The notes below the pieces were generated by a model. The model was not told where the DNA came from, made no database searches, and worked only from the letters and a program-made list of their open reading frames with translations. Shown here piece after piece: positions 5,452-30,470 of a stretch of DNA of 32,000 bases. The position numbers were made by a program, and so were the translations under genes. Numbering within the stretch: position 1 is the first letter of the stretch; each line of letters opens with the position of its first letter. Origin of the DNA: Mycobacterium leprae TN (GTDB taxonomy: Bacteria; Actinomycetota; Actinomycetes; Mycobacteriales; Mycobacteriaceae); NCBI RefSeq assembly GCF_000195855.1, contig NC_002677.1, forward strand, positions 3,060,001 through 3,092,000, written 5' to 3'.

Positions 5452-8400
5452 ATGCGGTCGGGTACGGCGACCCGGGAAGAAGCCGAGCAATCCAGCTCGG
5501 GCCCGGCGGCAGCGGCCACCGAGGCGGGGCCGGTAAAAACGCTGGCGGACTCGTCTGTGGCGGCAATGTCGCGTTGGTGGTTGGTGTTGGTCGGGGTCGT
5601 CGCGGTGGCGTTGACGTTCGCGCAATCCCCGGGACAGATCTCCCCCGATACCAAACTGGACCTAACCACCAACCCGCTACGCTTTCTGGCCCGCGCGACC
5701 AACCTGTGGAATAGCGACCTGCCGTTTGGTCAGGTGCAGAATCAGGCCTACGGCTATCTGTTTCCGCACGGCACCTTCTTTCTCATCGGACAGCTACTGG
5801 GATCACCCGGATGGATAACCCAGCGTTTGTGGTGGGCGCTGCTGCTGACGGCCGGGTTCTGGGGACTACTCCGAGTCGCCGAGACACTGAGCATCGGCAG
5901 TCCAACTTCACGCGCGATTGGCGCGGTAGCGTTTGCGTTATCGCCACGGGTGCTGACCACACTGGGGTCGATCTCGTCGGAAACTCTGCCGATGATGCTG
6001 TCGCCGTGGGTGTTGCTGCCCACGATTCTAGCTTTGCAGGGAGCTCCGGGCAGGTCGGTGCGGACACGTGCCGCGCAGGCGGGGCTGGCGGTCGCGTTGA
6101 TGGGTGCAGTTAACGCCATTGCAACGCTGGCCGGTTGTCTGCCTGCAGTGATCTGGTGGGCTTGTCACCGACCGAACCGCTTGTGGTGGCGTTATACCGG
6201 GTGGTGGCTGTTAGCACTGTGTTTGGCAACGCTGTGGTGGGTGGTGGCACTGGTTCTGCTGCACGGCGTCAGTCCCCCGTTCTTGGACTTCATCGAATCC
6301 TCCGGCGTTACCACGCAATGGTCGTCGTTAGTTGAGATGCTGCGCGGCACCGACAGCTGGACACCCTTCGTGGCACAGACCGCTACCGCGGGCACACCAC
6401 TGGTCACCGAGTCGGTGGCCATCCTGGGCACCTGCCTGGTAGCGGCGGCCGGATTGGCCGGGCTGGCTAGCACTGGGATGCCGGCTCGAGGTCGGCTGGT
6501 AACGATGTTGGTAATCGGAGTGGTATTGCTATCCGCCGGCTACAGCGGTGGGTTGGGCTCGCCGCTGGCGCAGGCGGTGCAGGCGTTCCTGGACTCCAGC
6601 GGCGCAGCACTGCGCAACGTGCACAAACTGGAGTCGGTGATCCGAACCCCGTTCGCATTGGGCATCGCCGGGCTTCTGGGCCGAATCCCCCTACCGGGCA
6701 GCGCGCCGGTATTGGTGTGGCTGAGCTCGTTTGCCCACCCCGAGCGCGACAAACGAGTCGCCGCGACAGTGGCGGTGTTAACCGCACTGTTGGTCAGCAC
6801 CTCGTCAGCGTGGACGGGTCGGCTCACCCCGCCAGGCACGTTCAGTGCGATACCGCAATATTGGCACGACACCAGTGACTGGCTCAGCGAACACAACACG
6901 GGAATACCGACACCTGGACGGGTGCTGGTGGTACCGGGCGCGCCGTTCGCCACTCAGGTGTGGGGCACCAGCCACGACGAGCCGCTGCAGGTGCTCGGCA
7001 ATAGCCCATGGGGAGTGCGCGACTCCATCCCGCTGACTCCGCCGCAGGCTATCCGGGCGCTGGATTCGGTGCAACGGCTATTCGCCTCCGGACGCCCGTC
7101 GGTTGGCCTGGCCGATACCCTTGCCCGCCAAGGCATTTCCTACGTGGTGCTGCGCAACGATCTGGATCCCGACACGTCGCGCTCAGCTCGCCCGATCCTG
7201 GTACACCGGGCCATCGCCGGGTCACCGCAGCTGGAAAAAGTAGCGCAGTTCGGTGCACCAGTGGGCACCAACATGCTCAAAGGTTTCGTTGCCGACAGCG
7301 AATTGCGTCCCTGGTACCCAGCGGTGGAGATCTATCGGGTGGCCGTTAGTGATGGGACCAATCCCGGCAAACCCTACTTCGCCGACACCGACCAACTTCC
7401 CCGCATCGACGGCGGACCCGAAGTGCTGCTGCGTCTTGACGAACGGCGCCGACTACTGGGACAGCCTGCATTAGGTCCGGCGCTGATGACCGCAGACGCC
7501 CAGTTCGCTGGTCTGCCACTACCCAGCCGGGCCGAGGTCACCATAACCGATACCCCGGTAGCACGCGAGACCGACTACGGCCGAGTAGACCAGCACTCGT
7601 CGGCGATCCGCGCAGTTAACGACGCCCGGCATACTTTCAACCGAGTACCCGACTACCCAGTCCCTGGCGCCGAAATGGTATTCGGGGGTTGGAGCGGTGG
7701 CCGGATCACCGCGTCAAGCTCGTCATCGGATGCCACCTCGATGCCCGATGTCGCTCCGGCAACCTCACCGGCCGCCGCCATAGACGGCGACCCGGCGACC
7801 TCGTGGGTGTCCAACGCACTGCAGCCCGCCGTCGGTCAATGGCTGCAAGTCGATTTTGACCACCCGGTAAACAACGCCGTCATCACCGTCACGCCCAGCG
7901 CGACTGCTGTCGGAGCACAAGTTCGGCGCATCGAGATCGAGACCGTCAACGGCACTACCAATTTGCGGGTCGATGAGGCCGGCAAGCCACTAGCAGTGGC
8001 GTTACCCTACGGTGAAACCCCATGGGTGAGGATCACCGCGGCTGCCACCGACGATGGGTCCTCCGGGGTGCAGTTCGGCATCACCGACCTAACGATTACC
8101 CAGTATGACGCGTCCGGATTCGCCCACCCGGTCAATCTACGGCACACCGCGCTGGTTCCCGGATCACCGCCAGGTTGGGCAGTTGCGGGGTGGGACCTGG
8201 GATCGGAATTACTCGGCAGACCGGGCTGCGCTCCGGCGCCCGACAACGTTCGCTGCGCGGCATCGATGACGCTAGCACCAGAAGAACCCGTCAATTTTAG
8301 CCGGACATTAACCGTTCCCTACCCGATATCGGTTACAGCAATGCTGTGGGTGCGACCACGACAGGGCCCTAAGCTGGCGGACCTGATCGCCGAGCCGAAG

Positions 8401-10530: not shown

Positions 10531-11588
10531 TGGGATGGTTTACGGCACACGAATATTGGCTGGGCGCCACTTGGTGCTCGAGCATGGCGCGGCAGCCATC
10601 TACCGCATCGCGTTTATGGCAGCCGCTACGCAGTTTCAGGCACTCATCGGGGAGAACGGGATGCTGACGGTGCTGCGATTTCTGGCTAGGCGGTCCTTCT
10701 GGAGATCACTGAACGTCTTTCATACCCGCTACTACGATGGGTTGTTCACCATTGCCTTCCGGTTCGGCGCGGCAATTGCGGCAGCTATCGTGGTCGTGGC
10801 GGCAGACTTGGCACCGTTGTGAGCCACGATGCCGATGCTGCTGACGCGCTGGGACCTTTACCTTTCGATGTCGGCTGGGCGAGCTAGTTGCTGTACGGGC
10901 TGGCGAGCCTGCTAGTTCTACCACTATGAGACACAGGCGATGCCGGGGCCGATCAGTTGGTTTTCTACCATCTACCCAAGCCACTGCACCGAATCGAGGT
11001 GTCGGGTAACTATTTTTTCCCCAGATCATCGGCCTATTCTGGTTGTTCACTCCACAGCAGATTGGCCAGCCTAGCTAAGGCGCTTATCGGTCGTCACCAA
11101 GCTGTGGCTAGTGGCATCGGACAACTTCATCTGACTCGATTAGCTGACGGTAATACTGGCCCGCAGCATGATAGATCAGTCTTGGGTCCTTCAGTGGCCG
11201 GCAACACCCCTACCCACGCAGCCGTTACTGCTGGCGTCGCAGTCGTGGTTCACCGTCTTGGCGAACATGTTCACCACCGCAGTTCTGTTCTTAAACCACA
11301 CACCTGTACGCAGCAAACTATCGTTTCATCAAAAAATGAACATGTTGTTCAACCCATTTCACCTCGTGTCGTGAACACCTACGGAGCTTTCGGCAGCTTT
11401 GGCTGCATTCACCGGTAACTGGTGATCGAAGGCACCGAAGAGACGACCATCAACAAGACAGATCCATAAGGAATACGAGTTCAAAAGCAAGCCCGGCACT
11501 ATATGCCGGTTGCAGCATCAATAGGTGCTCTATTAACTACGACCGGATCGCGGTAGCGCTGGAGATTAGCGAACGGCACGTAGTGATT

Positions 11589-11626
11589 TTTGATCAAGTG
11601 CAAGATCTATCTTGCACTTGATCAAA
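11589..11626. repeat. Perfect palindrome P2: 18-bp arms, 2-nt spacer
   Basis: 11589-11606 tttgatcaagtgcaagat is the exact reverse complement of 11609-11626 atcttgcacttgatcaaa. It lies in the C-terminal remnant of the ThDP-enzyme pseudogene. Confidence 0.95.
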
Positions 11627-12317: not shown

Positions 12318-12368
12318 CAGCGGGATGCTGGTGGTGGTGTCAGTGACACCACCACCAGCATCCCGCTG
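12318..12368. repeat. Perfect palindrome P3: 25-bp arms around a single central base (51 bp)
   Basis: 12318-12342 cagcgggatgctggtggtggtgtca is the exact reverse complement of 12344-12368 tgacaccaccaccagcatcccgctg. Both strands therefore translate to ...RDAGGGV(T/S)DTTTSIPL..., as seen in ORFs 12126-12392(-) and 12219-12413(+). Confidence 0.95.
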
Positions 12369-16060: not shown

Positions 16061-16529
16061 ATCATATCGAGACCGATTGTGTAGAAGCAGGTTTCGATGA
16101 CACAGTGAAGGCCGCCGCCAACACTACGATAATCCGGAGCACGGCCAACACTGGATTGTCGGGAGTTAGCGTGTCCCGTCCCAGGACCGCATCCATACCG
16201 CGCAGGCATAGATCCCCATATGCAGAAAAATCATCATCAGCACCAATAACAGCGCGGCTGTATCACAGTCCGCATGCAGCTCACCTGCGCGCACCACCGG
16301 CCGCAGCAAGTCCAGGCAGTGGCAATGAACTACGGTCCCCACACTGACCCGGGCAACGGCGGCCAACGCCAAAGCCGCGACGGCATGGAGCCCCCTAACA
16401 TCGATGACCATGTAATCATTCTGGTGTAATCTAACATAATAGTAAAACGCGTTGTCGGCTGGCCGTCAGAAGAGCACGCCGACGAACGTTAAGTTGGCCG
16501 CACGCTGGATAACAACAGCGGAGAAGGAA

Positions 16530-16839
16530 TCAGTCAAGGTCTAGTTCGTCGATGCGGATTGCTTGCAAGAGAGCAGATTCCTGAGCGAGAAACACGGTAA
16601 CCGATGTGTTAACCCAAAGCGGGGGGCTAGTGGAGATGGACACGATGTTGTCGCAATTGACTACTGAGGCCTGTTGTAGGCCGCTCTCGTTACCGACAGG
16701 CACCTCAGTCGACAGGTACACGGACAATGCTGGGGACTGGCACGACGGTAACGCGAGACAGATGCGGCCGGAAGAGTTCCGGGATCAGCATCAAAACGGG
16801 GCGCGCCTTGTCCAGATGTGCGGCGTGAATCGGCCGCAT
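16530..16839 (-). pseudogene. MazF/PemK-type toxin remnant (one frameshift near 16705-16727)
   Basis: MRPIHAAHLDKARPVLMLIPELFRPHLSRVTVVPV... continues after a frameshift as ...EVPVGNESGLQQASVVNCDNIVSISTSP...LDLD*. The total of about 103 codons is typical of MazF. The start overlaps the end of the upstream antitoxin remnant. Confidence 0.55.
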
Positions 16840-17073
16840 AAGTTCAGGCCTGGCGGAAGTTTCACCACATACCCAACCAGGGCATCCAGATCCGGACCAG
16901 TTCCCATAGCGGTAAGTTTCTGGGCATCGCGGGCTGCGATCTGGATTCACCGTTCGCTTTCAAGTGCACGCAACACCACTGCAGCGCAGCTCGGTGCGTG
17001 CTGCTCACCGACTCCCTGATTCCAGGAAGACGACGATGTCATCGGGTAACCGCACAGCAATCTGAGTGCTCAT
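16840..17073 (-). pseudogene. Ribbon-helix-helix-type antitoxin remnant (premature stop plus frameshifts)
   Basis: Minus-strand ATG at 17073 gives MSTQIAVRLPDDIVVFLESGSR* (stop at 17005-17007). This is followed in shifted frames by GEQHAPSCAAVVLRALESER and IQIAARDAQKLTAMGTGPDLDALVGYV. The AVRLPD...SRAxVVxxAL...ARDA pattern is typical of antitoxins paired with MazF-like toxins. Confidence 0.45.
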
Positions 17074-17103
17074 ACCATTCCGGTATCGGAATGGTATGAG
17101 CAC
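17066..17103. repeat. Perfect palindrome P4: 17-bp arms, 4-nt spacer; covers the antitoxin start codon (candidate former operator)
   Basis: 17066-17082 gtgctcataccattccg is the exact reverse complement of 17087-17103 cggaatggtatgagcac. On the minus strand the downstream arm contains ATGAGCAC, the first codons of the antitoxin remnant. Confidence 0.9.
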
Positions 17104-17144
17104 CCTAAGGAAACCAATGTCAAGAGTTCATCTGATAGGCCACG

Positions 17145-18860
17145 TTAATCGGCAGGACGTGTTTCTTCCAAGACTTGGTCGTAACGAGCCGAGTCGTTGA
17201 CCGGACACGGATCATCCGCATTACGAAACGAGCCTGGTCGCCTGTGGTTCGAAAACTTGCTATTGAGCTCGACGGGATAGCGGTTGAAGTCATTGACGAG
17301 CAGCGCGAAGAGGTCGTCGAGCAGCAGCTCACTCATGCCAGACGATGCAGCATCCTCCAGGATCAACTGGGTATAGGGCACAGTCGCTAAAAGCTGGCCC
17401 ACGCCGAAGACGAAGCCGATGTCCTTTTGCTGCGCTGCATCGGGAGTCAAGCTGACTAGCAGCGCGGCGAGCACATTGATCTACTCACGCAACAACGCAA
17501 AGTTGAGCAGGTGAGCATAGCTGCCGAACGTCGACCGCTAATCGTAGAACGCACCTCACCTAGGCTGCCCGTGGGCCCTGGGCAAACAAGAACGCCTCGT
17601 TGGACGTACCGACGCGACAACCCCAATCGGGGGCAATTCGCTATTCGGGGCGAGCAGGTAATTGAGCATAAACTCACCGAGCAACCCGATGTTGATGTGA
17701 ACGGTACCTTCCAGCCGGGACAACTCTCCGATCTCACGGACCATCGTTTCGAAAAACATGTCCTGCTTCGCAGCCTAAGGCAACGATGAGATCAAAATAG
17801 GGCAGTGTGCCGGCGAGAGAACACCGAGAATAGCCGGTAGCGGTGCATGCAGCATCAGTGAACAGCCACCACACGTGAGTAAAGTCGGTGACGACAGTCC
17901 CATCCAGGCGGCGGTTGGACATGTGGGTGACGGCCTCGTAAACGGCGTGCGTACACATACCGACAGAACACCCACATCCCAAATCATACGTTGACGGCGT
18001 TGAAGGGGCAGTGTGGAAGGCCTTCGGGCCTTGGTAACCAGATAGTCGCGCAGCGCGTTAATTGGCAACGTAGTTTGCGCTTCATACCATATTCTTGATC
18101 AGATCATACCACTCATGTCTGGAAATCGGCAGCGAAAAATATATAATTTGCCAGGGACGGTCACTTCACCGAAGGTGAGGACCATCCGGGTGACTTTTAC
18201 GTTGCCTATGTAGTCCTTCTAATCCAGCCAGTCCGTCCACCTTGACTCGGCCGCAAGATCATGTCGGGCTGGTAGACGTCGGCGCCGTGGGTCTGCTCCG
18301 ACAGATCGAAGGCTAACACCTCACCGGCCTGCAGCTGGGCAGTGAACTTGCGCTTGGCGTCCTCGTTGACGCTCGATCCAGATCAGGACCAGACCGAAAG
18401 CAGTCACCTGGAAGGGGACCAGTAGCTGAGTCCGTAGAAGCCGATGAACTGGGCAAACTCGCTGATTCGGTAGGTGTCCCGACAGCAATCCAGGCCACCG
18501 TACTTGTCCGGCATAAGCAGAGAAGCAAAGACGTGCTCCCGCCCTACGAAATCGGATAAATCATCTAAGTATCACACACTCGCGGTCGTCGGACTTCAAC
18601 CAGCGACTTCCCCGGAACTCGAAAAGTGCACCATCGCGGTCATGATCTCCCCAAGCGACGGTCTGGGTATTGGCGCTCCAAGCGGTTGGGATTTAGCAAC
18701 ATGACAATGTCTCCCTGGTACTCTCGGCAAGTTCCCGGGAGGCCGGTTCGGACAAGAACTAAGGTAAATGGCACTGCAAAAACGCGGCCACCGCGTGTCA
18801 GGAGAAAAACCGGGCCAGCAAATTGGCCAGTAGCACAATCAACTAAACCCAAACACCACT
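17145..18860 (-). pseudogene. fadE4: Acyl-CoA dehydrogenase (FadE4-like) pseudogene
   Basis: Minus-strand fragments in multiple frames: RKFTAQLQAGEVLAFDLSEQTHGADV (N/middle domain), AVYEAVTHMSNRRLDGTVVTDFTHV (ACAD C-domain pattern A..A..ya..R..fG..i.df), MFFETMVREIGELSRLEGTVHINIGLLGEF, and the C-terminal ORF 17145-17474. Divergent from php, as Rv0231 is from Rv0230c. The 5' boundary is approximate. Confidence 0.65.
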
Positions 18861-18893
18861 GTTTTCCTACCGCCGGACCTAGCTACCGGTTAA

Positions 18894-19863
18894 GTGTCAG
18901 AACTAAATACGGCTAGGAGCCCATAAATGTCACTGACATGCGCGTAACGTTCACGCATTAGTCAAGTGTTCATCCTTACCCCTGAATCGCGCAGAACTAT
19001 CCGGAACCCTGGACTGATGAAGAGCAGCGAGTGGCTGACGCCATTACCTGGCTAGGCTAGCTCAAGGACAGCGGTGTAGAAACCATCGTCGACCTCACTG
19101 TGATCCTGCTAGGTCGTTACATCCCGCGCATCGCCCGTGGCGCAGCGTCCACTGAGTTCAACATTGTTGTGATGGCCGGCATGTACATCATAATAACGAC
19201 GTACCGTTCTATTTCCACTAGTTCGGTGCGGGATGCGCCGTTGGACGGTCCAGAAATTATGACCTCCATAGTTCGTTCCGTGACATCGAGCTAGAGCATC
19301 GCTGACACCAGCATCAAGGCTGCGATCCTCAAATGCACCACCAGGCTTGCCTGGTGGTGCGCACAGGAGCCTAGGCACACAAACGCACCGGAGTCGCCCG
19401 ACCTCCACCCACACCCATGCAGCGGCTAAAGCGCGGACTTCGATCAGCAGCGTCTTTTCACTGAAGAAGGCGCGTCAGGGCCACGTGATCATCGGCCATT
19501 CCGGCGACACCAACAACGTAGACTACCTCGAGGCACTCAATCAACAACGGCTCCTACCTGGGGATGGACCAGTTAGGCCTCGACGTAACCTCGCCGATCG
19601 AAGACCGAGTGAACAGTGTGACGCACATGTTCGGCCGCAGGCACGGCAGACAAGATGGTGTTGTCCCACGATGCCAACTGCTATATCCGACGCGCCGCCT
19701 GAGGCGCTGCATCTGGTGGACGCACCCAATTAGCATTTACCTGCGCACCCATAACGACGTGATCACCACACTGAAAAATTAACGTGGTATCAACGATGAA
19801 CAGCTACACACCAGGCTTGTTGACAATCCGCGCAGCGCCTCCGAACACCAGGAAACTTATTAA
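18894..19863 (+). pseudogene. php: Phosphotriesterase-homology protein (Php) pseudogene with in-frame stops and frameshifts
   Basis: VSELNTARSP*, RVTFTH*, IAQNYPEPWTDEEQRVADAITWLG*LKDSGVETIVDLTVILLGRYIPRIARGAASTEFNIVVMAG, LDGPEIMTSIV, IKAAILKC, HVIIGHSGDTNNVDYLEAL, MDQLGLDVTSPIEDRVNSV, NDVITTLKN*..NDEQLHTRLVDNPR. These run collinear with Php (Rv0230c) as I recall it. Confidence 0.8.
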
Positions 19864-20174
19864 TTGAGCCGGTCCCCCGATCAGTTCATGCTGACTGCGC
19901 TCGTTCCCGACAAGCCCGCGGTCACGTGCTACGGGGTGATCGTAACCCGCCGCCCACGACCGGTCGACGAACCGGTTGGCCCAAGCGCTTTGGTGCACCC
20001 GGCCGACGGATCCAGGCTAAAAGCAGACGGCGTGAAAGAGTTGGCGCACAAACGTATTTTGTTATACACGGGAACACAAATCATCTAATTCGTCAGGACT
20101 CCGCTAAGGGACGACGGCGGAAAGGTGCGGCGATGGGCGGTGCGCACAAAAATCATGGCGCGATAGCATTCGCC

Positions 20175-21329
20175 TCAGTATGTATTGAGCTGGGGTACAA
20201 CGGCCGGCTTGCGCCGACACTCCCAGCGGCGCAACGCCTCCCGGCAGGGTGACTCGACCAGCGCGTAGCTGACGGCGGCGATCGCGAAACTGAAGATCAG
20301 TGTTAGCATCAACACCATGAGCATCCGGCCGGTGAACGGGAAGGCTCCAAGCACCGGGAAGACCATAGCCAGCGCAGCAAGGTGCCACACGAACATGCCA
20401 TAGGACCAGCGACCCAACGTCACCATGCCGGTGCTACCCAGTACGCGGTGCAACGTCTCGGGCCGGTCCAGGACCAACGGCGCCACCAACGCGAAAGCCA
20501 CCAGGGAACCCATCGCCATCTTCACCGCGAATTGCGTGGCAGTGCCCGGCACCAACCCTTCCGGGCCAGCTAGCGGGGAAACCGCCACCAAGTAGGCCAA
20601 CAGAGTCATAACAGCCATCGTCAAGCGGGAACGAGCCAACCGGTGTGGCAAACTGATACGACTATACGACCACTCCGCCAACAACATGCCCGCCGCAAAC
20701 CAGGAGAAAAATGCCGGCGGCCAGGTCAGCGGATTAACGCCCGATCCAGTATGCACCGGCACCCAGCCCCAGGCCCAACTGATCACCACAGCGGCGGCTA
20801 TCACCGGCACCCGGGCACGAACCGAGATCCTACGGGTCAACAACGCCAGGATAGGCAACGCCAGGTAGAAGCTGGCCTCGACGGACAGGCTCCACATCTG
20901 GGTCAGGCCGCTGGTCAGGGTGAGCGGAACGTAGATCTGGGTGAGCGTCAAGTTTGCCAACCATACGATCCAGCTGGCATGATTGGCGCCGGGTAACAGG
21001 GACAGAATCACGACGACTGCCACCAGATAGGCCGGCATGATGCGTACCACCCGCGATCGTAGGTAGTGGCTGGTGTGTGGTTGCTCATCCTTGGGCACCG
21101 GTTGTCTAGCCGTAGCGGCGTGTCCACGCCACAACAGGAACCCCGACAGCGCAAAAAACACCGCCACCGCGAGGTCGAAGCGGCCGAAGAGGCGGCCCAC
21201 AATGCCGCTGGAGTGCCCCGTCTGAAAAGCGACATGGGTAACGACCACACCGATGGCCGCGCATGCACGCATACCTTCCACAGCGGGCAGAAAGCTGCGG
21301 ATCCCACCCACCTGCTGGACGTCGGTCAC
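20175..21329 (-). CDS. Integral-membrane acyltransferase (acyltransferase-3 family), Rv0228-like; the orthologue family includes the corynebacterial trehalose-mycolate acetyltransferase TmaT (from memory)
   Basis: Clean 384-codon ORF starting at GTG 21329. About 10 hydrophobic helices, with the N-terminal AT3 signature region RACAAIGVVVTHVAF...FFALSGFLL. Confidence 0.85.
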   Translation of the reverse strand: MTDVQQVGGIRSFLPAVEGMRACAAIGVVVTHVAFQTGHSSGIVGRLFGRFDLAVAVFFALSGFLLWRGHAATARQPVPKDEQPHTSHYLRSRVVRIMPAYLVAVVVILSLLPGANHASWIVWLANLTLTQIYVPLTLTSGLTQMWSLSVEASFYLALPILALLTRRISVRARVPVIAAAVVISWAWGWVPVHTGSGVNPLTWPPAFFSWFAAGMLLAEWSYSRISLPHRLARSRLTMAVMTLLAYLVAVSPLAGPEGLVPGTATQFAVKMAMGSLVAFALVAPLVLDRPETLHRVLGSTGMVTLGRWSYGMFVWHLAALAMVFPVLGAFPFTGRMLMVLMLTLIFSFAIAAVSYALVESPCREALRRWECRRKPAVVPQLNTY

Positions 21330-21537
21330 GATTTTCCAGTCTGCCTAAGGCGCGTTGCTCTACGAATCAGGTGCATCCCGATGTCCCCAAAAATTACCCG
21401 GATAACCGCCGATAGGTTCGTAAGTAAAAGCCTTACATTCTGCTGTTAAGGTCAAACGGGTTTTACCTCGCTGCTTGGCCAGGTCGGAGCGGGTCGCGAC
21501 CAACGAGTCCAGGGACCAGAAGGAGGATCACATCAAC

Positions 21538-22821
21538 GTGAACCGAGCAGTCATTTTGCGGTTCACCGCATGCGGGATCATCGGGCTCGGCGCCGCCTTT
21601 TTGATCGCCGCATTGCTGCTGGCAACATATACTAGCAGCAGAATCACCAAAATCCCGCTTGATATCGACGCAACATTGGTTAGCGAAGGAAACGGAACCG
21701 CGCTCGATTCAAGCTCTTTGTCCAGTGAGCACATCATCGTCAACCAGAATGTGCCGCTAGTGTCCCAACAGCAGATCACTGTTGAGTCGCCGGCCAACGT
21801 TGACGTGGTCACGTTTCAGGTCGGTGTCTCGATTCGGCGCACCGATAAGCAAAAGGACACCGGACTACTGCTGGCCGTCGTCGACACCGTCACACTCAAT
21901 CGTAAAACAGCGATGGCTGTTTCGGACGACACACACACCGGCGGCTCCATCCAGAAGCCGCGCGGATTCACTGACGAGAACCCGCCTACCGCCATCCCGT
22001 TGCGGCACGACGGATTGTCCTACCGGTTCCCCTTCCACACCGAGAAAAAGACGTATCCGTACTTCGACCCGGTAGCACAGAAGACGTTTGACGTTAATTA
22101 CCAAAACCAAGAAGACATCAACGGTTTAACTACTTATCGCTTCACACAGAACGTCGGCTATGATGCCGACGGCAAGCTGGTGGCCCCAATAACCTACCCG
22201 TCGCTGTACGCCAGCGATGAGGACGGCAAAATCACCACCACCGCGGCGATATGGGGTTTGTCCGGGGATCCGTCGGAGCAGATCACCATGACCCGCTACT
22301 ACGCCGCGCAGCGTACGTTCTGGGTGGATCCGGTGTCAGGCACCATCGTCAAGGAAACCGAGCACGTCAACCACTACTTTGCCCGCGATACACTAAAGCC
22401 AGAGGTGACGCTGGCCGATTACAAGGTCACTTCCACCGAAGAGACCATCGAATCTCAGGTCAACTCGGCCCGTGACGAACGGGACCGACTGGCGCTATGG
22501 TCGCGAGTGTTGCCGATCACGTTCACCGCGGTCGGCTTGATCACACTGCTAAGTGGTGGATTCCTGGCTTCGTTCAGCCTGCGGACCGAGAGCGCGCTGA
22601 CCGAATCCGGTCTGGACCGGGCAAACCGCGACGCCTTCGGCCACTGCCGCACCGAGGAACCAGTTCCTGGCGCTGAAGCCGAGACCGAGAAACTGCCCAC
22701 CCAACGCCCTGAACTGCGTGATTCTAGTATACTCAGCGTCAGTGCGCACCGACGACGTTCAAGCGAGTCGTCACCACCCAATTCGGGGCCAGCCGACCCT
22801 GGCCACCCTGAACGGGGATAA
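21538..22821 (+). CDS. Conserved membrane protein, Rv0227c-like (N- and C-terminal TM helices flanking a large exported domain; DUF3068/PorA-like by recollection)
   Basis: GTG at 21538 sits 10 nt after AGGAGGA (21521-27), in frame with ORF 21475-22821. TM helix ILRFTACGIIGLGAAFLIAALLL, a soluble domain of about 300 aa, a second TM helix VLPITFTAVGLITLLSGGFLASF, then a Pro/Ser/Glu-rich tail. Confidence 0.85.
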   Translation: MNRAVILRFTACGIIGLGAAFLIAALLLATYTSSRITKIPLDIDATLVSEGNGTALDSSSLSSEHIIVNQNVPLVSQQQITVESPANVDVVTFQVGVSIRRTDKQKDTGLLLAVVDTVTLNRKTAMAVSDDTHTGGSIQKPRGFTDENPPTAIPLRHDGLSYRFPFHTEKKTYPYFDPVAQKTFDVNYQNQEDINGLTTYRFTQNVGYDADGKLVAPITYPSLYASDEDGKITTTAAIWGLSGDPSEQITMTRYYAAQRTFWVDPVSGTIVKETEHVNHYFARDTLKPEVTLADYKVTSTEETIESQVNSARDERDRLALWSRVLPITFTAVGLITLLSGGFLASFSLRTESALTESGLDRANRDAFGHCRTEEPVPGAEAETEKLPTQRPELRDSSILSVSAHRRRSSESSPPNSGPADPGHPERG

Positions 22822-22949
22822 CTCGGCAACGATGCGGGACAAAATGACCGATGGTATAAAGTACCTCCCGCGTGCGGGGAAACCGGGCAATCAGCACATC
22901 GCTCGGCGGCTGGGTCGTAGGGGTGAGTAGAGAGTTATACCACCGGTCC

Positions 22950-24725
22950 ATGAGCTGGTCTCGACCCAGCTACGCGTTGGGGATGGCGCTACTAGTGGTT
23001 GGCCCGCTAATGCGGCCCGGCTACCTGCTGCTGCGCGACGCGGTGTCCACACCCCGGTCATATCTGTCCGATGCCGCCCTGGGATTGACGTCTGCACCGC
23101 GGTCGACGCCGCAAGATTTCGCGGTGGCGATGGCCTCGCATCTTGTCGACGGCGGTATCGTGGTGAAGTCAGCACTCGTCTTGGGGTTATGGCTGGCTGG
23201 ATGGGGTGCGGCTCGACTGGTAGTGACGGCGCTGCCTTCGGCGGGTGTGGCTGGCCAGTTCGTCGCTAGCACACTGGCGGTCTGGAATCCCTATGTAGCC
23301 GAACGGCTGCTACAAGGCCATTGGAGCCTGCTGGTCGGCTACGGGTGCCTGCCCTGGGTTGCTGAGGCAATGCTAATGCTGCGATCATCCGACAATGCAA
23401 GCCGGCCGGGATTACTGGGGTTTTTCGCACTGGCTTGCTGGATCGCGCTGGCCGGGCTGACTCCAACCGGATTGATGCTCGCCGCGACAGTGGCGCTGAT
23501 CTGCGTGGCTGTCCCAGTTGAGGGCCCTGGCGAGCCCAGGCCACGTTGGCTGTGCGCCGCAGCGACATTGGGCAGTGCGCTAGGAGCAGCGCTGCCCTGG
23601 CTAACAGCTTCGGCAGTGGGCACGTCATTGACCGCCCATACGGTGGCGAACACGCTCGGAGTCACGGTCTTTGCGCCTCGTGCCGAGCCTGGTCTAGGCA
23701 CACTTGCCAGCCTGGCCAGCCTCGGCGGTATCTGGAATGGCGAGGCTGTACCCACTTCGCGGACAACACTTTTCGCGGTGCTATCGGCCACGGTACTGCT
23801 TGGGGTGGTGGTTGCGGGACTACCGGTAGCGGTGCGACGTCCAGCAGTAGTTCCGCTGCTGGTGCTGGCAGCGGTGGCGGTAGCGACACCTGCCGCTTTG
23901 GCAACAGGCCCGGGAATAGACATGCTAAAAGCAGTAGTCAATGCCGTGCCCGGCCTCGGAGTACTGCGCGACGGGCAGAAGTGGGTGGCGTTAGCGGTTC
24001 CGGGATACTCACTTGCGGGGGCCGGCGCAGTGGTGACGCTGGGACGCTGGCTAAGACCTTCAAGGCCCCTAAGTCCCGTAGTAACGGCGTTGGCGTGCTG
24101 TCTCGCGCTGATTCTGGCGCTGCCAGACCTAGCCTGGGGTGTGTGGGGCAAGGTTCAGCCAGTGCATTACCCGTCCGGATGGGCGGCCGTGGCGGCGACA
24201 ATCAACGACCGAGGCGAAGGCCCAGGGTGGGTAGCGGTACTGCCCGCCGGAACCATGCGACGCTTCTCGTGGTCCGGGACCGCACCAGTGCTGGATCCGC
24301 TGCCCCGCTGGGTCCGCGACGACGTACTGACCACCGGTGATCTGATCATTTCCGGAGTGATGGTTGCTGGCGAAGGTAATCATGCCCGGGCGGCACAAGA
24401 CTTGCTTCTGTCCGGGCCGAATCCTTCCGCCTTAACTGCGGCAGGAGTGGCCTGGCTTGTGGTTGAATCGGACACCGCCGGTGACATGGGTGCGTCTGCA
24501 CGGACCCTCGCAGCGCTGCAGCCAACCTACCGTGACGATGCGATCGGACTTTATCGGATCGGCGGTAGCAACGCAAAGACAGCGCCTTCCCCCTACCGAG
24601 GGTTACTGATTGCCGCGCATCTGACTTGGCTGGTAATACTGGTCATGGCCGTGGTCGGCATGCAGATTACCCGGCACACTCACTTCCGCGACGTATCAAG
24701 TGTAGCCTTACTATCACGACGATAG
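22950..24725 (+). CDS. Large polytopic membrane protein, Rv0226c-like (orthologue family of corynebacterial MmpA, from memory)
   Basis: ORF 22872-24725. The likely start is ATG 22950 (MSWSRPSYALGMALLVVGPL...). It has more than 10 hydrophobic helices plus a C-terminal soluble segment and a final TM helix. The overlapping long ORFs on other frames are low-complexity GC artefacts. Confidence 0.85.
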   Translation: MSWSRPSYALGMALLVVGPLMRPGYLLLRDAVSTPRSYLSDAALGLTSAPRSTPQDFAVAMASHLVDGGIVVKSALVLGLWLAGWGAARLVVTALPSAGVAGQFVASTLAVWNPYVAERLLQGHWSLLVGYGCLPWVAEAMLMLRSSDNASRPGLLGFFALACWIALAGLTPTGLMLAATVALICVAVPVEGPGEPRPRWLCAAATLGSALGAALPWLTASAVGTSLTAHTVANTLGVTVFAPRAEPGLGTLASLASLGGIWNGEAVPTSRTTLFAVLSATVLLGVVVAGLPVAVRRPAVVPLLVLAAVAVATPAALATGPGIDMLKAVVNAVPGLGVLRDGQKWVALAVPGYSLAGAGAVVTLGRWLRPSRPLSPVVTALACCLALILALPDLAWGVWGKVQPVHYPSGWAAVAATINDRGEGPGWVAVLPAGTMRRFSWSGTAPVLDPLPRWVRDDVLTTGDLIISGVMVAGEGNHARAAQDLLLSGPNPSALTAAGVAWLVVESDTAGDMGASARTLAALQPTYRDDAIGLYRIGGSNAKTAPSPYRGLLIAAHLTWLVILVMAVVGMQITRHTHFRDVSSVALLSRR

Positions 24726-24970
24726 CAACGGTTAAACTTCAGTGCTGGTTTTTACGGCCACTCTACTGAATAAAGTGGCTAAACTCTCGTTGTAGAGCCG
24801 GGGGGTTAAATTTGTGATAGCTGCGTCAGGCTGTATATCGACGTGGGCTCGATGCCAAGCTCACCATCAAGACGCCAAAGATCCCATAAGTGGGCAACAC
24901 TAACTGACGAAGCGCCTTCGGCTCCTTGTCGCTAATCACAGCGACCACTGTCAACCTGGAAGTAGGACTT

Positions 24971-25006
24971 CGGGATTGGGAGTTCGAACGGGATTGGGAG
25001 TTCGAG
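24971..25006. repeat. 2 x 18-bp tandem duplication (cgggattgggagttcgaa / cgggattgggagttcgag; one mismatch)
   Basis: 24971-24988 against 24989-25006 gives 17/18 identical. It sits in the 362-bp convergent intergenic region between the Rv0226c-like and Rv0225-like genes. Confidence 0.9.
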
Positions 25007-25087
25007 CTGCGGCACCAAAGTACCTCATGGGTACGCATAGGCTCCGGATTAAGTACAAAGCATCAGTTGGTACGGGAAAGCTTCGCC

Positions 25088-26272
25088 TCACACACCGCCT
25101 GAGACCACGCCAGTTATGTAGTCGCCGGCCTGCACCGCTTCCAACACCGTACGCATTGCGCCAGCGCTTTGCCGCCAGGAAAACTCGAGGCTGCGGGCCT
25201 GCGCCTTAGCACCAAGTTGATCACGCAACACCGGATCAGTTAATAGTTCCTCGAGCCTATCCACCAGATCAGCGCGGTTATCCACCAATATCCCAGTCAC
25301 CCCGTCGATGATCGAATCGGTTAGCCCCCCGGAGGACCGATAGCCAATAGTGGGCACGTTGTGCTGGGCCGCTTCCACCACCGCCAAACCCCATCCCTCC
25401 TTCCGCGAAGGCAAGAGATGCAGCCAAGAGCTTTGCAACACATGGTGCTTGGTCACGTCATCGACATGGCCATGGAAGGTCACCGCATCGGAAATCCCAA
25501 GTCGGTGCGCATGATCGACGAGACGTTGACGCCACCACCCACCGCCAACGATGTCAAGATGCAAACCCGGTATCCTCAAGCGTTGCCGCAGATCCGCGAC
25601 GGCCTCCAGCGCATCTTCAACCTGCTTGTGCGGCACCAGCCGCGACAACACAACCACTCGCGGCGCAGCCCCGCGTGTGCCAGACAACGATTGCGCCGGC
25701 GCCTCGTCTAGACCGTTGCGCACCACAGCGATCCGCTCGTGATCCACGCCAAGAGCAACCAGATCGCGAGCCGACGGCAACGACACCGTCAAATATTGAT
25801 TGCGGCGGTGCAACCGCGGGGACAACGTTGACTCGACATACCAGCCGAGCCGGCCGATCACCGGGCCGGCCACCGGCCACTGCTCACGATGACAATGGTG
25901 CACCAACACCACCACCCGGCTGCCATACAACAGTCGGGCCAGGAATGGCCAACCATTTTGGGTATCGACCACCACATCTGGACGCACCCGCCGCAGTGGT
26001 CCAAGCCCGAAGCGGGCCGCAGCCATCGCCAGCAATGCCCACAGGTACACCGAGTAGCGCCCGCCGGCGCGGCTAATCAGCACACCGTCAACCACTTCAC
26101 GCCGTGACGCACCTGGATAACGTGCGGTGCGTAGCGTTACGGAGATACCTGATGCGGCCAGCTGTACACCGATGCGCTGCAAATAAGTTTCGCTACCGCC
26201 CCCCTGTGGGTGACCAATGTCACGCCAGCATAGTAACAATACCGAACCCAGATCACGTCGCGCTGCAAACAT
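25088..26272 (-). CDS. GT4-family (GT-B fold) glycosyltransferase, Rv0225-like, 394 aa
   Basis: Clean ORF starting at ATG 26272. N-terminal GGSETY motif and a C-terminal GT4 nucleotide-sugar binding region LLPSRKEGWGLAVVEAAQHNVPTIGYRSSGGLTDSI. Confidence 0.9.
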   Translation of the reverse strand: MFAARRDLGSVLLLCWRDIGHPQGGGSETYLQRIGVQLAASGISVTLRTARYPGASRREVVDGVLISRAGGRYSVYLWALLAMAAARFGLGPLRRVRPDVVVDTQNGWPFLARLLYGSRVVVLVHHCHREQWPVAGPVIGRLGWYVESTLSPRLHRRNQYLTVSLPSARDLVALGVDHERIAVVRNGLDEAPAQSLSGTRGAAPRVVVLSRLVPHKQVEDALEAVADLRQRLRIPGLHLDIVGGGWWRQRLVDHAHRLGISDAVTFHGHVDDVTKHHVLQSSWLHLLPSRKEGWGLAVVEAAQHNVPTIGYRSSGGLTDSIIDGVTGILVDNRADLVDRLEELLTDPVLRDQLGAKAQARSLEFSWRQSAGAMRTVLEAVQAGDYITGVVSGGV

Positions 26273-26324
26273 CGACCGCTAGCCTAGCGAGAAAGCGGCC
26301 TAGCGTAACGCTCACGTTGGACAG

Positions 26325-27134
26325 GTGGACACCAGACGTAGGGTGTGGCCGGTGGCCATCATCACCCCTCATGTAACTGACGTGTTCGCGCAGCGAGCGA
26401 CATTGACCCGCTCGCTGCAGCTGCTGTCAGAATTTCGCTACGAGCAGCCGTATCCAGCCCGCTTCTACCGAGCATTGGCAGCCGATACCGTGGCTATGGT
26501 CGGTGATCTTTGGCTGTCGACACACGGTGCACCCCCGGTTGGCCGCATACTGCTCGACGTCGGTAGTGGGTCCGGATATTTCGCAGCAGCGTTTGCCGAC
26601 GCCGGCGTCCGATACATCGGTGTCGAACCGGACCCAAGGGAGATGCACGCGGCGGGACCGGCTTTGGTACCGAAAGCAGGCGCGTTTGTCCGAGCTTCGG
26701 GCATGGCGTTACCCTTCGCCGATGACGCTGTAGACATCTGCTTGTCGTCTAATGTCGCCGAACACGTACCGCAGCCCTGGCAATTGGGCAACGAAATGCT
26801 GCGGGTGACCAAACCTGGCGGCCTAGTCGTGTTATCCTACACTATTTGGCTGGGCCCGTTCGGCGGGCACGAGATGGGCCTGACGCATTACCTAGGCGGT
26901 GCCCGTGCCGCCACCCGGTATGTTCGCAAACACGGTCATCGGGCAAAGAACGACTACGGGTCTTCGTTGTTTCCTGTGTCGGCGGCCGATGGCCTGAATT
27001 GGGCGGCCAGTACCGGGGTCGCGGTTGCCGCATTTCCTCGCTACCACCCGCGATGGGCCTGGTGGCTGACATCGGTGCCGGTACTACGGGAGTTCGTGGT
27101 GAGCAATCTGGTGCTAGTTCTGCGGCCACGATAG
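26325..27134 (+). CDS. SAM-dependent methyltransferase, Rv0224c-like (orthologue family of corynebacterial MtrP, from memory)
   Basis: Clean ORF with SAM motif I ILLDVGSGSGYFAAAF, post-I YIGVEPD and motif II-like VDICLSSNVAEHV. The start is uncertain (in-frame GTG at 26325, 26343, 26352 or 26382). It is divergent from the GT4 gene with a gap of only 52 bp. Confidence 0.85.
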   Translation: MDTRRRVWPVAIITPHVTDVFAQRATLTRSLQLLSEFRYEQPYPARFYRALAADTVAMVGDLWLSTHGAPPVGRILLDVGSGSGYFAAAFADAGVRYIGVEPDPREMHAAGPALVPKAGAFVRASGMALPFADDAVDICLSSNVAEHVPQPWQLGNEMLRVTKPGGLVVLSYTIWLGPFGGHEMGLTHYLGGARAATRYVRKHGHRAKNDYGSSLFPVSAADGLNWAASTGVAVAAFPRYHPRWAWWLTSVPVLREFVVSNLVLVLRPR

Positions 27135-28302
27135 GCCAATGACAGTAGTTTACTGAACTATATTCTCGAGGCACTGCGGTTTGGGTAGGGGTGGCGCCAT
27201 GGTCGCCATACGCAAAACAGAGTACGACAAACTCTTCACCGACTGAATCTGGACGCAACCATCGACCTCCAGCATCATCCAGGTGTACTGCCCGGACACC
27301 GGTGAGTATGTGTGCGAAGTACCGATGGCAGCGCCCGGCCGACATTGACGACGCAGTCGCCGCGGCGACTTCGGGATTCCACCGCAGTCCCTGGCCCTCG
27401 ACGCCACCGACACTGGACACAGCCGTTAATCACTGCAGCGGTCTTAGGCAATGAAGGCCTGGTCAACACGCTGCTGACAGCTGAAACCAGTCAGACGCAC
27501 ACCATCACCGAGACGATGCATTGGATGAGTTCGAATGAAGCGAGGAACTTCTTTGCCGGCGCTGCGGACAAGAATCAAGTGTACCGAGATCCACAACGGC
27601 TCGTACGAGCAAACCATCGTCAGCCGGCGAACCGATTGTGCTGGTAAGCGCGATCGTCGCATGGAACGCGCCGCTGTTCCTGACGGTCAACAACCTGGGT
27701 CCGACGCTGCTAACCGGCTGCACAAGGGTACTAAAGCCGGCCACCGAAACCCCGTTGACCGCAAACGCTCTAGCCGAAGTTCTCGCTCCGGCGGACCTAT
27801 CTGAGGGTATGCTCTCAGTAGTGTCGGGCGGCGTCCCAACCGGATAGGCCCTGACGTCGAACCCGGAAATCGACATAATTTACCTTCACCAACCGATTCG
27901 GCCGGCGGTAAGGAGGTCGGGCTGACCTGCTCAAGCCGTGCACCGTGGAGCTCGGCGGAAAGTCGTTGGCCATCCTCCTCGAGGAAGTTTACCTGTCCAC
28001 CGCTATTCCGATGTTGGTGTTCTCTGGGGTGATGAACGCCGGGCAAGGCTTTGTGAATCAGGCCCGCATCCTGGCCCCACGTTCCGGGTACGACGAAATC
28101 GTGTCCGCGATCGAGGAGCACAGCACAAACATCGACAGACAAAAGCATCGGGAAGGTGAGTTCGGCTGGTGTGCAGCAATGGAAGCTGCGGTGCCGGCAA
28201 CGGGTTTTTCGTGTAGCCCAAGGCATTCAAAGATATCGACAACAAGATAACGATCGACCAGGAGGAAATCTTTGGGTAGGTGCTAAGCATCATTGGTTAT
28301 GC

Positions 28303-28342
28303 CACCGAGTCGTTGGCGATCACGATCGCCAACGACTCGGTG
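28303..28342. repeat. Perfect palindrome P5: 19-bp arms, 2-nt spacer
   Basis: 28303-28321 caccgagtcgttggcgatc is the exact reverse complement of 28324-28342 gatcgccaacgactcggtg. It encodes TESLAI-T-IANDSV within the ALDH pseudogene. Confidence 0.95.
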
Positions 28343-28368
28343 TATGAGCTAATCCGCAATATATAGAC

Positions 28369-28429
28369 TATCCCCCTCGAAGGGCATTAAGATCTGTTTC
28401 GCAGATCTTAATGCCCTTCGAGGGGGATA
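28369..28429. repeat. Perfect palindrome P6: 28-bp arms, 5-nt spacer (61 bp)
   Basis: 28369-28396 tatccccctcgaagggcattaagatctg is the exact reverse complement of 28402-28429 cagatcttaatgcccttcgagggggata. It lies 26 bp downstream of P5 in the same pseudogene. Confidence 0.95.
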
Positions 28430-28695
28430 CGAAATCAATTGGTACACTTTCAATCCCAGCTTCCCCTTATATCCACTACAAAAACTCCGGAATCGGACGT
28501 GAAAACGAGCCCGAATAAGTCAAGCACATCACTCAACAAAAGAACGTGCTAACGACGATAGGCTACACAACCAGCTATAGAGCCGTGGCAGACCATAAGA
28601 GAAGAGCCAAGGTGCTTTGTGAGGCACACTGGCTTTTAGTTGAAGTCCAAGGCATAGATGTTAGCATCGGCCCTTCATGCGTCGGGCGGTGGGAG

Positions 28696-29169
28696 CTACC
28701 GAATGTAATACACGGTGTTGCCGGCCATTATAACCACCCCTATCCGTGGCACCGCAGCTACCGATCGGTGTGTCGGCATGCTTACACCAACTTGGTCCAT
28801 GCCCCGGATTGTGGAGTCGAACCGTTCAAACACGGTAAAGGCCGTGTCAGTGGAGAGGCACCTCCCGCCGATCGTGTACCCGTAGATGACATCCGACACC
28901 ACAGCAAGGTGGTTACGTGGGGGGAGGCATGTGCTACATCCTTCCACGAGCTGCCGTCGAACCTCGGTCTGCGGGGCGCAGCTTTTTGGCGTTCTGCCCC
29001 CGACCATTACGAGTTTGCCACCAATGCACCAGCCGTGCACCGACGCGATCGGTGGCGTGCAGCAATCAACGGCGGCGTTAAGCACGACACACGCCATGGC
29101 CAACCTGGTACGTGATGCGGGTCTCGGGTAAGAAACGCCATTTCGCCGCGGGCCAGACTCTGCACACAA
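28696..29169 (-). pseudogene. Possible hormone-sensitive-lipase-family esterase remnant (LipC/LipW-like)
   Basis: ORF 28696-29169(-) contains SVHGWCIGG (degenerate HGGG oxyanion motif) followed about 40 aa later by LAVVSDVIYGY (compare VVSVDYRLAPE). There is no start context and the ORF is truncated. Weak call. Confidence 0.3.
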
Positions 29170-29399
29170 GAGCAGCTGCAGCGCTTAGGACACCGAGGTC
29201 ACCCACAACTTGGCCATCACCACCAGGATAATCAGCAGACCCAGCACCACATGCAGGCCTTGAGTCAGCCGGGTACAACCAGGGCGGCCACTGCCTCAGT
29301 GGTGCCCCCCGAAACCCGATGCTGGCTATCAGTACAGAAAACGCCACAGCCTAGTCGGAAAGCCATAGTGGTTGCCATGTTCTAGCCTGGACCCTGAGG

Positions 29400-30470
29400 T
29401 GCGTTCTGAATCGAATCACATCATCGCCCATCAAGCCACAAAACTCGCGATTCCCTCAGCCGCCGAACGGATCGCGGCTGCAGGGAGACCGATTCCAAAC
29501 CACCCGATTGTAACGATACCCCAGTATTGACATCCTCTCCGGCATGGCCGACCCAGCTGACCCAGAACCATCCCTACGACCAATCCATAGCATGCTACAC
29601 ACAGACCACGGTTATCGCGCATAACATCCTCTAAAGATAACGTGCACTTAATAGGATATCATCAGATAATTTCATTTAGGATGCCGTGCTGACGCACATC
29701 AACTTGGCTGGCCACGCAATTACATCGTTTTATATCCAGCGTCGCCAATATCAACAGCGATATCGGTTTCAGTGGTGGGTCGTTGTTCCACATTGCTGTC
29801 ACCGGCAAACATGCTGGGCGTCCCTGTGGTCAACGTCGACAGCTTTCCCCGAAGCCCTGGTGAAGGGCGGCATTCTGTCCGGCCGAGATGTCTCTGGTCA
29901 CTTGCCTGCGGCTGGGCGACGACGTGGAGCCGTAAGCGCGGATCGGTCAGGACGGTAATCTAGTATGGCCGTCGCCCGGGCGGTGGTCGACGAGAACATG
30001 AACGACGTGGCTGTTGGCTGAGGTGGTGGAAATAATTTACCGGCCGCCGACATGGATAAGCGGTTACTTGGAACAACTCGACGGCTACCTCGGAGGTGTT
30101 TGCTAGCCCCTGGTTCCATACCGAGGACCTCGTTTGAATGGACGAAAATGGCTACGTCTGGTAGGTGGATAGCAAGCAAGAAGGACACGAGCATCACCGG
30201 TGGTGATAACATCTACTGCTTTGAGGCAGAGAACATCCTCGCCGGCCATCCCGACATCGTCGAGGTCTCCACCAGCGGGTGAGCTCACGAAAAGTGGAGC
30301 GAGGTGCCGACCGCGGCTGTAAAGAATGAGCATTTGCGGCTAGCAAGGACTAACTTAACTTGAGTTCCTGCCTGATCGGCTCGCGCGCTACAAACACCCC
30401 GCAGCGCTTGAGATCGTTACCAATCCGCTTCGCAACCCAGCCGGGAAGGTGCCCAAAAAATTAAACCGCC
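29400..30470 (+). pseudogene. fadD5: Fatty-acyl-AMP/CoA ligase (FadD5-like) pseudogene, shortened and frameshifted
   Basis: AMP-binding motifs in shifting frames: ALNRISSDNFI*DAVLTHINLAG (decayed YTSGTTGxPKGAxLTHxN P-loop region, about 29640-29720), WIASKKDTSITGGDNIYCFEAENILAGHPDIVEVS (GRxKDxIxxGGxNIYxxEVE), HEKWSEVPTAAV, FLPDRLARYKHPAALEIVTNPLRNPAGKVPKK. It lies directly upstream of yrbE1A, as Rv0166 does. The 5' boundary is uncertain. Confidence 0.55.

Follow-up and report, generated by a model that had tools for sequence, protein, structure and literature searches.

How did the aldehyde dehydrogenase (ALDH) pseudogene of Mycobacterium leprae TN come to contain two long and perfect palindromes, P5 and P6, separated by a gap of only 26 nt? 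The pseudogene lies in the 32,000-nucleotide stretch of DNA that was analyzed here in full (the window), and the original prediction for this locus held that the palindromes had been written into the gene by copying of the opposite strand and not by insertion of a foreign hairpin. An inverted-repeat search found both palindromes where they had been described: P5 has 19-nt arms and a 2-nt spacer, and P6 has 28-nt arms and a 5-nt loop, with 100% complementarity between the arms in both cases (Table 1). In one frame, the translation of the P5/P6 region reads ...ATESLAITIANDSVYEL..., and in another it reads LSPSKGIKICFADLNALRGGYEINWYTFNPSFP, followed by YKNSGIGRE in the third frame; the translations quoted previously for the two palindromes match this three-frame reading.

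Table 1. Coordinates of the ALDH pseudogene, the parts of palindromes P5 and P6, and the other long palindromes of the window
Feature	Coordinates	Strand	Description	Basis or remark
ALDH pseudogene (Rv0223c orthologue)	27190..28560 (about)	+	Frameshifts and stops	Three-frame translation
Palindrome P5	28303..28342		40 nt	Inverted-repeat search
P5 left arm	28303..28321	+	Converted, non-native; changed core TCGTTG at 28310-28315, ancestral GAGGAA	Alignments, one-switch model
P5 spacer AC	28322..28323	+	Ancestral GC gave the spacer-less 14-nt palindrome GCGATCGCGATCGC	
P5 right arm	28324..28342	+	Native, encodes I-A-N-D-S-V; conversion template	19/19 identical to L091
Palindrome P6	28369..28429		61 nt	Inverted-repeat search
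P6 left arm	28369..28396	+	Native with background-level decay; first GATC at 28391-28394	CGAAGGGCATTAAGATCT matches orthologue CGAAGGGCATCAAGATCT (PKGIKI)
P6 loop TTTCG	28397..28401	+	With flanks, TGTTTCGCA	Best one-switch solution and by-eye comparison
P6 right arm	28402..28429	+	Exact inverted copy of the left arm; replaces native CGCACCGGGACG(TA)	Native sequence resumes at TACGAAATCAATTGG
Perfect palindrome, 21-nt arms, 12-nt loop	10172..10225		GDPD-family pseudogene	Both arms partly converted versus outgroup, in opposite directions
Perfect palindrome, 18-nt arms	11589..11626		TPP-enzyme pseudogene	Outer stem common to M. lepromatosis
Perfect palindrome, 25-nt arms	12318..12368		TPP-enzyme pseudogene	M. 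leprae specific; right arm replaces native sequence; return at GCTG microhomology
Perfect palindrome, 17-nt arms	17066..17103		Dead DNA	Identical in M. lepromatosis (L082:2975-3016)

Arms of this length were far outside the range of shuffled sequence: the longest perfect arm in 60 block shuffles of the window was 8 to 12 nt, versus the 28 nt observed. Folded as DNA hairpins, P5 and P6 reached -23.3 kcal/mol (z = -11) and -34.2 kcal/mol (z = -15), respectively, and the orthologous stretches of M. haemophilum folded no better than shuffled sequence. The Logan assembly SRR10570880 (L087) was 100% identical to window positions 16352 to 29642 (13.3 kb), both palindromes included, and the P5 and P6 sites were identical in three independent assemblies (L087, L093, and L094). 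The arms are unique sequences that have no further copy elsewhere in the window and belong to no repeat family. Within the intact aftD gene, positions 6405 to 6423 (CACCGAGTCGGTGGCCATC) share 17 of 19 bases with the P5 left arm, where about 0.01 such matches are expected; this match is probably due to chance, because the P5 right arm offers a 19/19 template.

The best match of the pseudogene is the putative aldehyde dehydrogenase of M. tuberculosis (P0001, the Rv0223c product), and the open reading frame directly upstream (positions 26325 to 27134) is ML2584, a methyltransferase gene whose exact sequence is found in TN, Br4923, and Kyoto-2. A search of genome contigs with the M. tuberculosis protein returned 80 intact orthologues, a set without the leprosy bacilli and M. 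haemophilum, whose loci were recovered via cluster members of the neighboring genes. The outgroups in the alignments were M. haemophilum, an intact uncultured M. haemophilum-like relative (L091), M. fragae, M. gastri, M. simulans, and M. triplex, and M. lepromatosis was aligned in addition. The relative is a metagenome-assembled mycobacterium (L088, L089, and L091; ENA ERZ1079237 contig k127_206844; Logan ERR2163669) in which the genes of the region are intact; its nucleotide identity is about 93% to M. haemophilum and 88% to M. leprae, and it is a useful extra outgroup.

Both M. haemophilum (L084) and L091 have an intact ALDH of 488 amino acids at the syntenic position, and a pseudogene occupies the same ALDH position in M. 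lepromatosis (L081 to L083). The ALDH pseudogene is about 21 to 26% diverged from M. haemophilum. Deletions of 72, 9, and 3 nt in the pseudogene (gaps at window positions 28111, 27443, and 28189, respectively) are common to M. leprae and M. lepromatosis, and the gene was therefore inactivated in their common ancestor, before the split. Counted at sites where two outgroups agree, substitutions per site were 8.5% on the M. leprae-specific branch, 6.0% on the M. lepromatosis-specific branch, and 8.9% for changes common to both leprosy bacilli.

At P5, the intact orthologues read CACCGAG GAGGAA GCGATC GC GATCGC CAACGAC TCGGTG, and M. leprae reads CACCGAG TCGTTG GCGATC AC GATCGC CAACGAC TCGGTG. The ancestral site was a quasi-palindrome with 7 + 6 complementary bases around a mismatched hexamer, and its perfect 14-nt central palindrome is found in M. 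haemophilum, L091, and M. fragae. The left arm is GAGGAGGAA or GAAGACGAA in all intact orthologues (GAAGACGAA being the L091 sequence). Five of the six core bases are changed in M. leprae, every one of them to the complement of its partner, and the net change in length is 0, the region measuring 42 nt here and 42 nt in M. haemophilum, L091, and M. gastri. A brute-force one-switch model, in which a segment is replaced by the reverse complement of a nearby segment, lowered the number of differences in 71 nt from 10-11 to 6, removing 4 or 5 of them, and it picked exactly the replacement of GAGGAA by TCGTTG.

The P5 left arm of M. lepromatosis is the unconverted GAGTAGGAA; the conversion is therefore specific to M. 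leprae and later than pseudogenization. The first of the five changes, a G-to-T substitution that creates a TAG stop, is also found in M. lepromatosis and probably arose before the switch, so that the template switch itself would account for four changes. At about 0.085 x 1/3 per site, the chance of four specified substitutions is of the order of 1e-6 (arithmetic from the branch rate), and independent substitution is negligible as a source of P5. In M. lepromatosis, the TAG stop stands at the codon that was overwritten later in M. leprae, and the tandem GCGATCGCGATC is one GCGATC unit shorter at L082:11965-11975, through a slippage-type 6-nt deletion.

At P6, the intact orthologues read ...CCGAAGGGCATCAAGATC TCGGAGCA GATC CGCACCGGGACG TACGGAATCAATTGG, and M. 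leprae reads ...CTCGAAGGGCATTAAGATC TGTTTCGCA GATC TTAATGCCCTTCGAGGGGGA TACGAAATCAATTGG. The core of the left arm is identical to M. haemophilum at 17 of 18 positions, and the whole arm is identical at about 75%, which is the background level of the pseudogene; the right arm is complementary to the left arm at 28 of 28 positions and unrelated to the native CGCACCGGGACG of all intact orthologues. The region is 89 nt long, versus 82 nt in all intact orthologues, and since this net gain of 7 nt compares with a palindrome of 61 nt, the sequence was replaced, not inserted. Specifically, an inverted copy of 35 nt stands in place of the native 26-nt TCGGAGCAGATCCGCACCGGGACGTA, and there are small changes elsewhere. 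The replacement shifts the reading frame, and the native reading is back after the copies (YEINWY...YKNSGIGRE).

The ancestral P6 site contained short inverted repeats, AGATCT/CAGATC and TATCCC/GGGAcgTA. With an ancestral template, the one-switch model reduced the edits from 36-45 to 27-37 (about 9 removed), and the right arm cost 0 edits when it was templated by the left arm of M. leprae itself. In the best solution of an exhaustive search, copying leaves the template at the first GATC, resumes at the second, and runs backward across the loop and then the left arm; the return point, TA/GGGA, is also present in the native GGGACGTACGG. The loop segment TGTTTCGCA agrees at 6 of 9 positions with the inverted native loop TGCTCCGA, from which it differs by two C-to-T changes and one inserted base, and at 3 of 9 positions with the native orientation TCGGAGCA. 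This comparison of 9 bases is suggestive of an inversion of the loop as well, which would place the first switch at the first GATC and not after the second. The outer left arm (TATCCC CCTC G) needs extra indels, the left arm is about 25% different from the ancestor, and P6 may be the product of more than one event.

At the P6 site of M. lepromatosis (L082:12020-12045), a 34-nt deletion relative to the intact orthologues leaves GTACCC-TTC-GGGTAC, a perfect 6-bp mini-palindrome. The idea that it is a centrally deleted P6 was dropped: in a single-deletion comparison, palindromic and non-palindromic ancestors fitted equally, with 8 to 10 residual edits for both.

The alignments show that one arm of each palindrome is native and that the other was overwritten by its exact reverse complement in the lineage that led to M. 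leprae. The arms had been assigned in this way in the original prediction, which took the first arm of P5 and the second arm of P6 to be foreign to the ALDH, named gcgatc...gatcgc as a pre-existing short palindrome that could have been the seed at P5, and had the native reading resume after P6; the native arms, the ancestral 14-nt palindrome, and the YKNSGIGRE that follows P6 bear it out on each of these points. Its estimate that the gene was about three codons longer holds approximately, the excess being 7 nt and not a number of whole codons. Its central claim, replacement by opposite-strand copying, is likewise supported by the orthologue and M. lepromatosis alignments: the arms are not extra sequence relative to the orthologues, and the non-native arm occurs in none of the intact orthologues aligned.

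Quasi-palindrome mutations arise by polymerase strand switching in replication and are suppressed by 3' exonucleases. Both P5 and P6 show the hallmarks of this class: an imperfect inverted repeat pre-exists in the ancestor, the changes are clustered and the new bases are complementary to the partner arm, the templating arm (the right arm of P5 and the left arm of P6) keeps the ancestral sequence, and the replacement is in register, with a net change of 0 nt at P5 and +7 nt at P6. P5 and P6 were thus very probably left behind by template-switch mutations at quasi-palindromes, in a pseudogene that decays neutrally. In the mechanism proposed, the 3' end of the replicating nascent strand would dissociate and re-anneal at a short self-complementary microhomology, for which GATC at P6 and the GCGATC core at P5 are candidates, either on the opposite strand or on itself. 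Being self-complementary, GATC could readily serve as the microhomology for an opposite-strand switch. The wrong template would then be copied for about 20 to 35 nt, before synthesis went back to the correct template, with a second microhomology (TA/GGGA at P6) as the point of return. The apparent inversion of the P6 loop would speak for an opposite-strand switch at the first GATC and against a simple snap-back that followed the second. The products are presumably without function, and they would persist because the ALDH gene was already dead.

P5 and P6 belong to a window-wide pattern and are not peculiar to the ALDH gene. The 32-kb window contains six perfect palindromes with arms of 17 to 28 nt, all of which lie in pseudogene or noncoding DNA (roughly half of the window, as estimated from gene calls), are made from local sequence, and have the same anatomy against the outgroups. 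The four palindromes at 10172, 11589, 12318, and 17066 are also present in independent M. leprae assemblies. By a back-of-envelope estimate for about 15 kb of dead DNA, two of six events would lie as close as 26 nt with a probability of roughly 0.2, and the adjacency of P5 and P6 was therefore not treated as significant. In addition, a perfect palindrome with 12-nt arms, GCACCACCAGGC tt GCCTGGTGGTGC, was seen at positions 19335 to 19360, in a pseudogene region aligning to a phosphotriesterase-family gene of M. haemophilum.

Two of the six palindromes predate the split of M. leprae and M. lepromatosis and are still perfect. In the palindrome at 17066-17103, all 38 nt are identical in M. lepromatosis, versus only 87 to 89% identity in the flanks; the M. 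lepromatosis arms are 19 nt long, and M. leprae has one outer G-to-A change. In the palindrome at 11589-11626, the derived outer stem TTTGATC/GATCAAA is also present in M. lepromatosis (L086:16100-16145), and one pair that is A-T in M. leprae is G-C in M. lepromatosis and the outgroups, a compensated difference in both arms. The M. lepromatosis counterpart of the latter palindrome carries a 5-nt insertion in its inner part. M. lepromatosis also has a perfect palindrome of its own, with 18-nt arms and a 6-nt loop, at L082:8650-8691; the corresponding M. leprae sequence (about window positions 25010 to 25050) is not palindromic and has only a short GTACC/GGTAC repeat, and the M. lepromatosis palindrome is a parallel, independent event in the sister species.

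The density of such palindromes in the window, 6 per 32 kb, is about 35 times that in the 1.5 Mb of loci from other mycobacteria. The 80 control loci (1.496 Mb) yielded 8 perfect palindromes with arms of at least 16 nt and 41 hairpins of comparable score, 26 of which were imperfect, with many lying right after the ALDH stop (terminator-like). The flanks of M. haemophilum (L084 and L085) and of two uncultured relatives (L088 and L090), about 21 kb each, had no arms of at least 12 nt, and one perfect repeat with 11-nt arms was found in each of L084, L088, and L090. The M. uberis flank (about 21 kb) had arms of 11 to 12 nt only, and the M. lepromatosis loci (about 21 to 24 kb per locus) contained several palindromes. 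In M. uberis, about 8.5 kb of dead DNA held 0 long palindromes, versus about 3 expected at the M. leprae density, which hints weakly at a lineage-specific rise in template switching over mere long neutral exposure. Directly after the ALDH stop, many mycobacteria have one or the other of two recurring long palindromes, a AGACGCAAAAGCCCCCAAAAC... type and a CGCCGAGCGTGAACTCACGGCGA... type (about 11220-11320; loci L012, L040, L043, L047, L048, L055, and L058; L015, L017, L036, L039, L053, L056, L066, L072, and L077), which resemble families of terminator-like repeats between genes.

High rates of quasi-palindrome correction have been measured in Escherichia coli reporters, and correction from arm to arm is expected from them. 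Without correction, a palindrome with 17-nt arms would stay perfect on the M. leprae branch with a probability of about exp(-0.085 x 34), or roughly 0.06 by arithmetic, and a mismatch-tolerant scan of the window found no imperfect palindrome of comparable score. The two old and perfect cases, together with the lack of any decayed palindrome, suggest that arm-to-arm correction is ongoing and keeps the palindromes perfect; the long stems would probably be maintained by repeated correction events of the same kind as those that made P5 and P6.

Among the other explanations, fold-back (hairpin-primed) repair synthesis at a double-strand break or gap, in place of a switch at an active fork, is unlikely. 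It would give the same product, an inverted copy joined at microhomologies, and M. leprae has lost many repair functions. In its simple form, however, fold-back repair gives an inverted duplication with distal loss and no in-register return, whereas the native reading here resumes exactly; moreover, it is a variant of the same template-switch class and inseparable from fork-associated switching by sequence alone.

It is very unlikely that the hairpins are functional and selected, whether as a terminator or RNA-stabilizing stem-loop limiting ML2584 read-through, as a small RNA, or as a protein-binding site. Read-through transcription of M. leprae pseudogenes is widespread, strong stem-loops in them have been reported as putative terminators (PMC2753549), and the palindrome at 17066 is identical in M. 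lepromatosis. P5 and P6, however, are both absent from M. lepromatosis, which has the 34-nt deletion at P6; neither is followed by a T-tract or called by a terminator scan, and an Rfam search over the whole window returned no match. All arm pairs of the six palindromes (128/128) are Watson-Crick, with no G-T pair, a result that DNA copying gives and that RNA-level selection need not, and the hairpins of the control mycobacteria are imperfect in 26 of 41 cases. Furthermore, a stem of this kind in a pseudogene did not terminate transcription in the work of Williams et al. (PMC2753549). With no U-tract, no Rfam family, and no M. lepromatosis counterpart, P5 and P6 were rejected as candidates for an intrinsic terminator or structured RNA.

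It is extremely unlikely that a foreign hairpin, such as a palindromic repeat of the MITE or REP type, was inserted into the pseudogene. Families of intergenic palindromic repeats do exist in mycobacteria, and two of them sit just after the ALDH stop in many control loci, but each palindrome has one arm that is homologous to the ALDH sequence of the orthologues, the net length changed by 0 nt for the 40-nt palindrome and by +7 nt for the 61-nt one, no further copy of the arms was found in the window, and the sites lack a target-site duplication. The orthologue alignment and the fact that the arms are unique rule out a mobile element of this type. Finally, a chance build-up of independent substitutions or a sequencing or assembly artifact can be set aside as next to impossible: clusters of differences are expected at about 21 to 26% divergence from M. 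haemophilum, but shuffled arms never exceeded 12 nt, every changed P5 base is the complement of its partner, and the artifact is rejected by the identity of L087, L093, and L094 at P5 and P6.

Template switching at quasi-palindromes remains the preferred reading, and P5 and P6 are new examples of a known mutational mechanism. The density, perfection, and persistence of palindromes in the leprosy bacilli are mildly surprising. A broader proposal, which we regard as possible but rather doubtful, is that template switching is elevated genome-wide in the leprosy-bacillus lineage, that dead DNA thereby acquires long perfect palindromes at a density tens of times that of other mycobacteria, that recurrent arm-to-arm correction (concerted arms) has kept them perfect for more than 10 million years since the split, and that the cause is a lineage-specific loss of a hairpin-processing or 3'-exonuclease function. 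Naive extrapolation of the window would give several hundred such palindromes per genome, and an enrichment that proved genome-wide would point to a specific lost repair or exonuclease function. About half of the leprosy-bacillus genome evolves neutrally, and the leprosy bacilli offer a long-running natural record of bacterial template switching, which includes evidence that long palindromes can remain perfect through the separation of two species. In the pseudogenes of M. leprae, some of the frameshifts and densely clustered mutations represent single template-switch events and not many independent substitutions, which matters for pseudogene dating, Ka/Ks, divergence estimates, and alignment-based ancestral reconstruction in M. 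leprae.

A search of the literature on template switching or palindromes in M. leprae returned nothing specific, and no catalogue of template switches for mycobacteria or M. leprae was found in the searchable literature. The nearest observations in the species are those of Williams et al. (2009), who described strong stem-loops (delta-G of -37 and -38) in M. leprae pseudogenes as putative terminators, at least one of them non-terminating (PMC2753549). Like P5 and P6, these stems are very stable and lie inside pseudogene sequence. They were read as terminators, and their origin was not examined there; P5 and P6, by comparison, have no T-tracts and are not conserved in the sister species. The "terminators" of Williams et al. 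may belong to the same class as P5 and P6.

For Proteobacteria, Lavi et al. (2018; PMC5941160) proposed that inverted repeats are preferentially corrected to perfection, and van Noort et al. (2003) likewise dealt with the correction and conservation of such repeats in bacterial genomes. As in those studies, perfect repeats exceed imperfect ones in the window, repeats persist across species (17066 and 11589), and changes in the two arms are compensated. The earlier work concerned short repeats, mostly in functional genomes of Proteobacteria, whereas the arms described here are 17 to 28 nt long, lie in nonfunctional DNA, and are about 35 times as dense as in related genomes.

Template switching at quasi-palindromes itself is established experimentally in E. 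coli (PMC7202029), from the model of Ripley (1982) to the thyA and lacZ QP reporters (Viswanathan et al. 2000; Seier et al. 2011; Lovett laboratory, PMC7202029). In that system, as at P5 and P6, a pre-existing imperfect repeat is made perfect by a cluster of changes that exactly complement the opposite arm, the length changes little or not at all, and the junctions fall at microhomologies. In contrast to the reporter mutations, P5 and P6 are fixed evolutionary events in a natural pseudogene of an obligate intracellular mycobacterium, their arms are long (19 to 28 nt), and the P6 event copied about 35 nt and apparently inverted the loop. The four-point model of short-range template switching (Loytynoja and Goldman 2017; Walker et al. 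2021), which has been described and catalogued in primate genomes (PMC7954356), applies to P6. Events of that type appear in a linear alignment as a dense cluster of mismatches and indels, as P6 does, and P6 fits the 1-2-3-4 scheme, with an exit at GATC, backward copying of the opposite strand, and a return at TA/GGGA.
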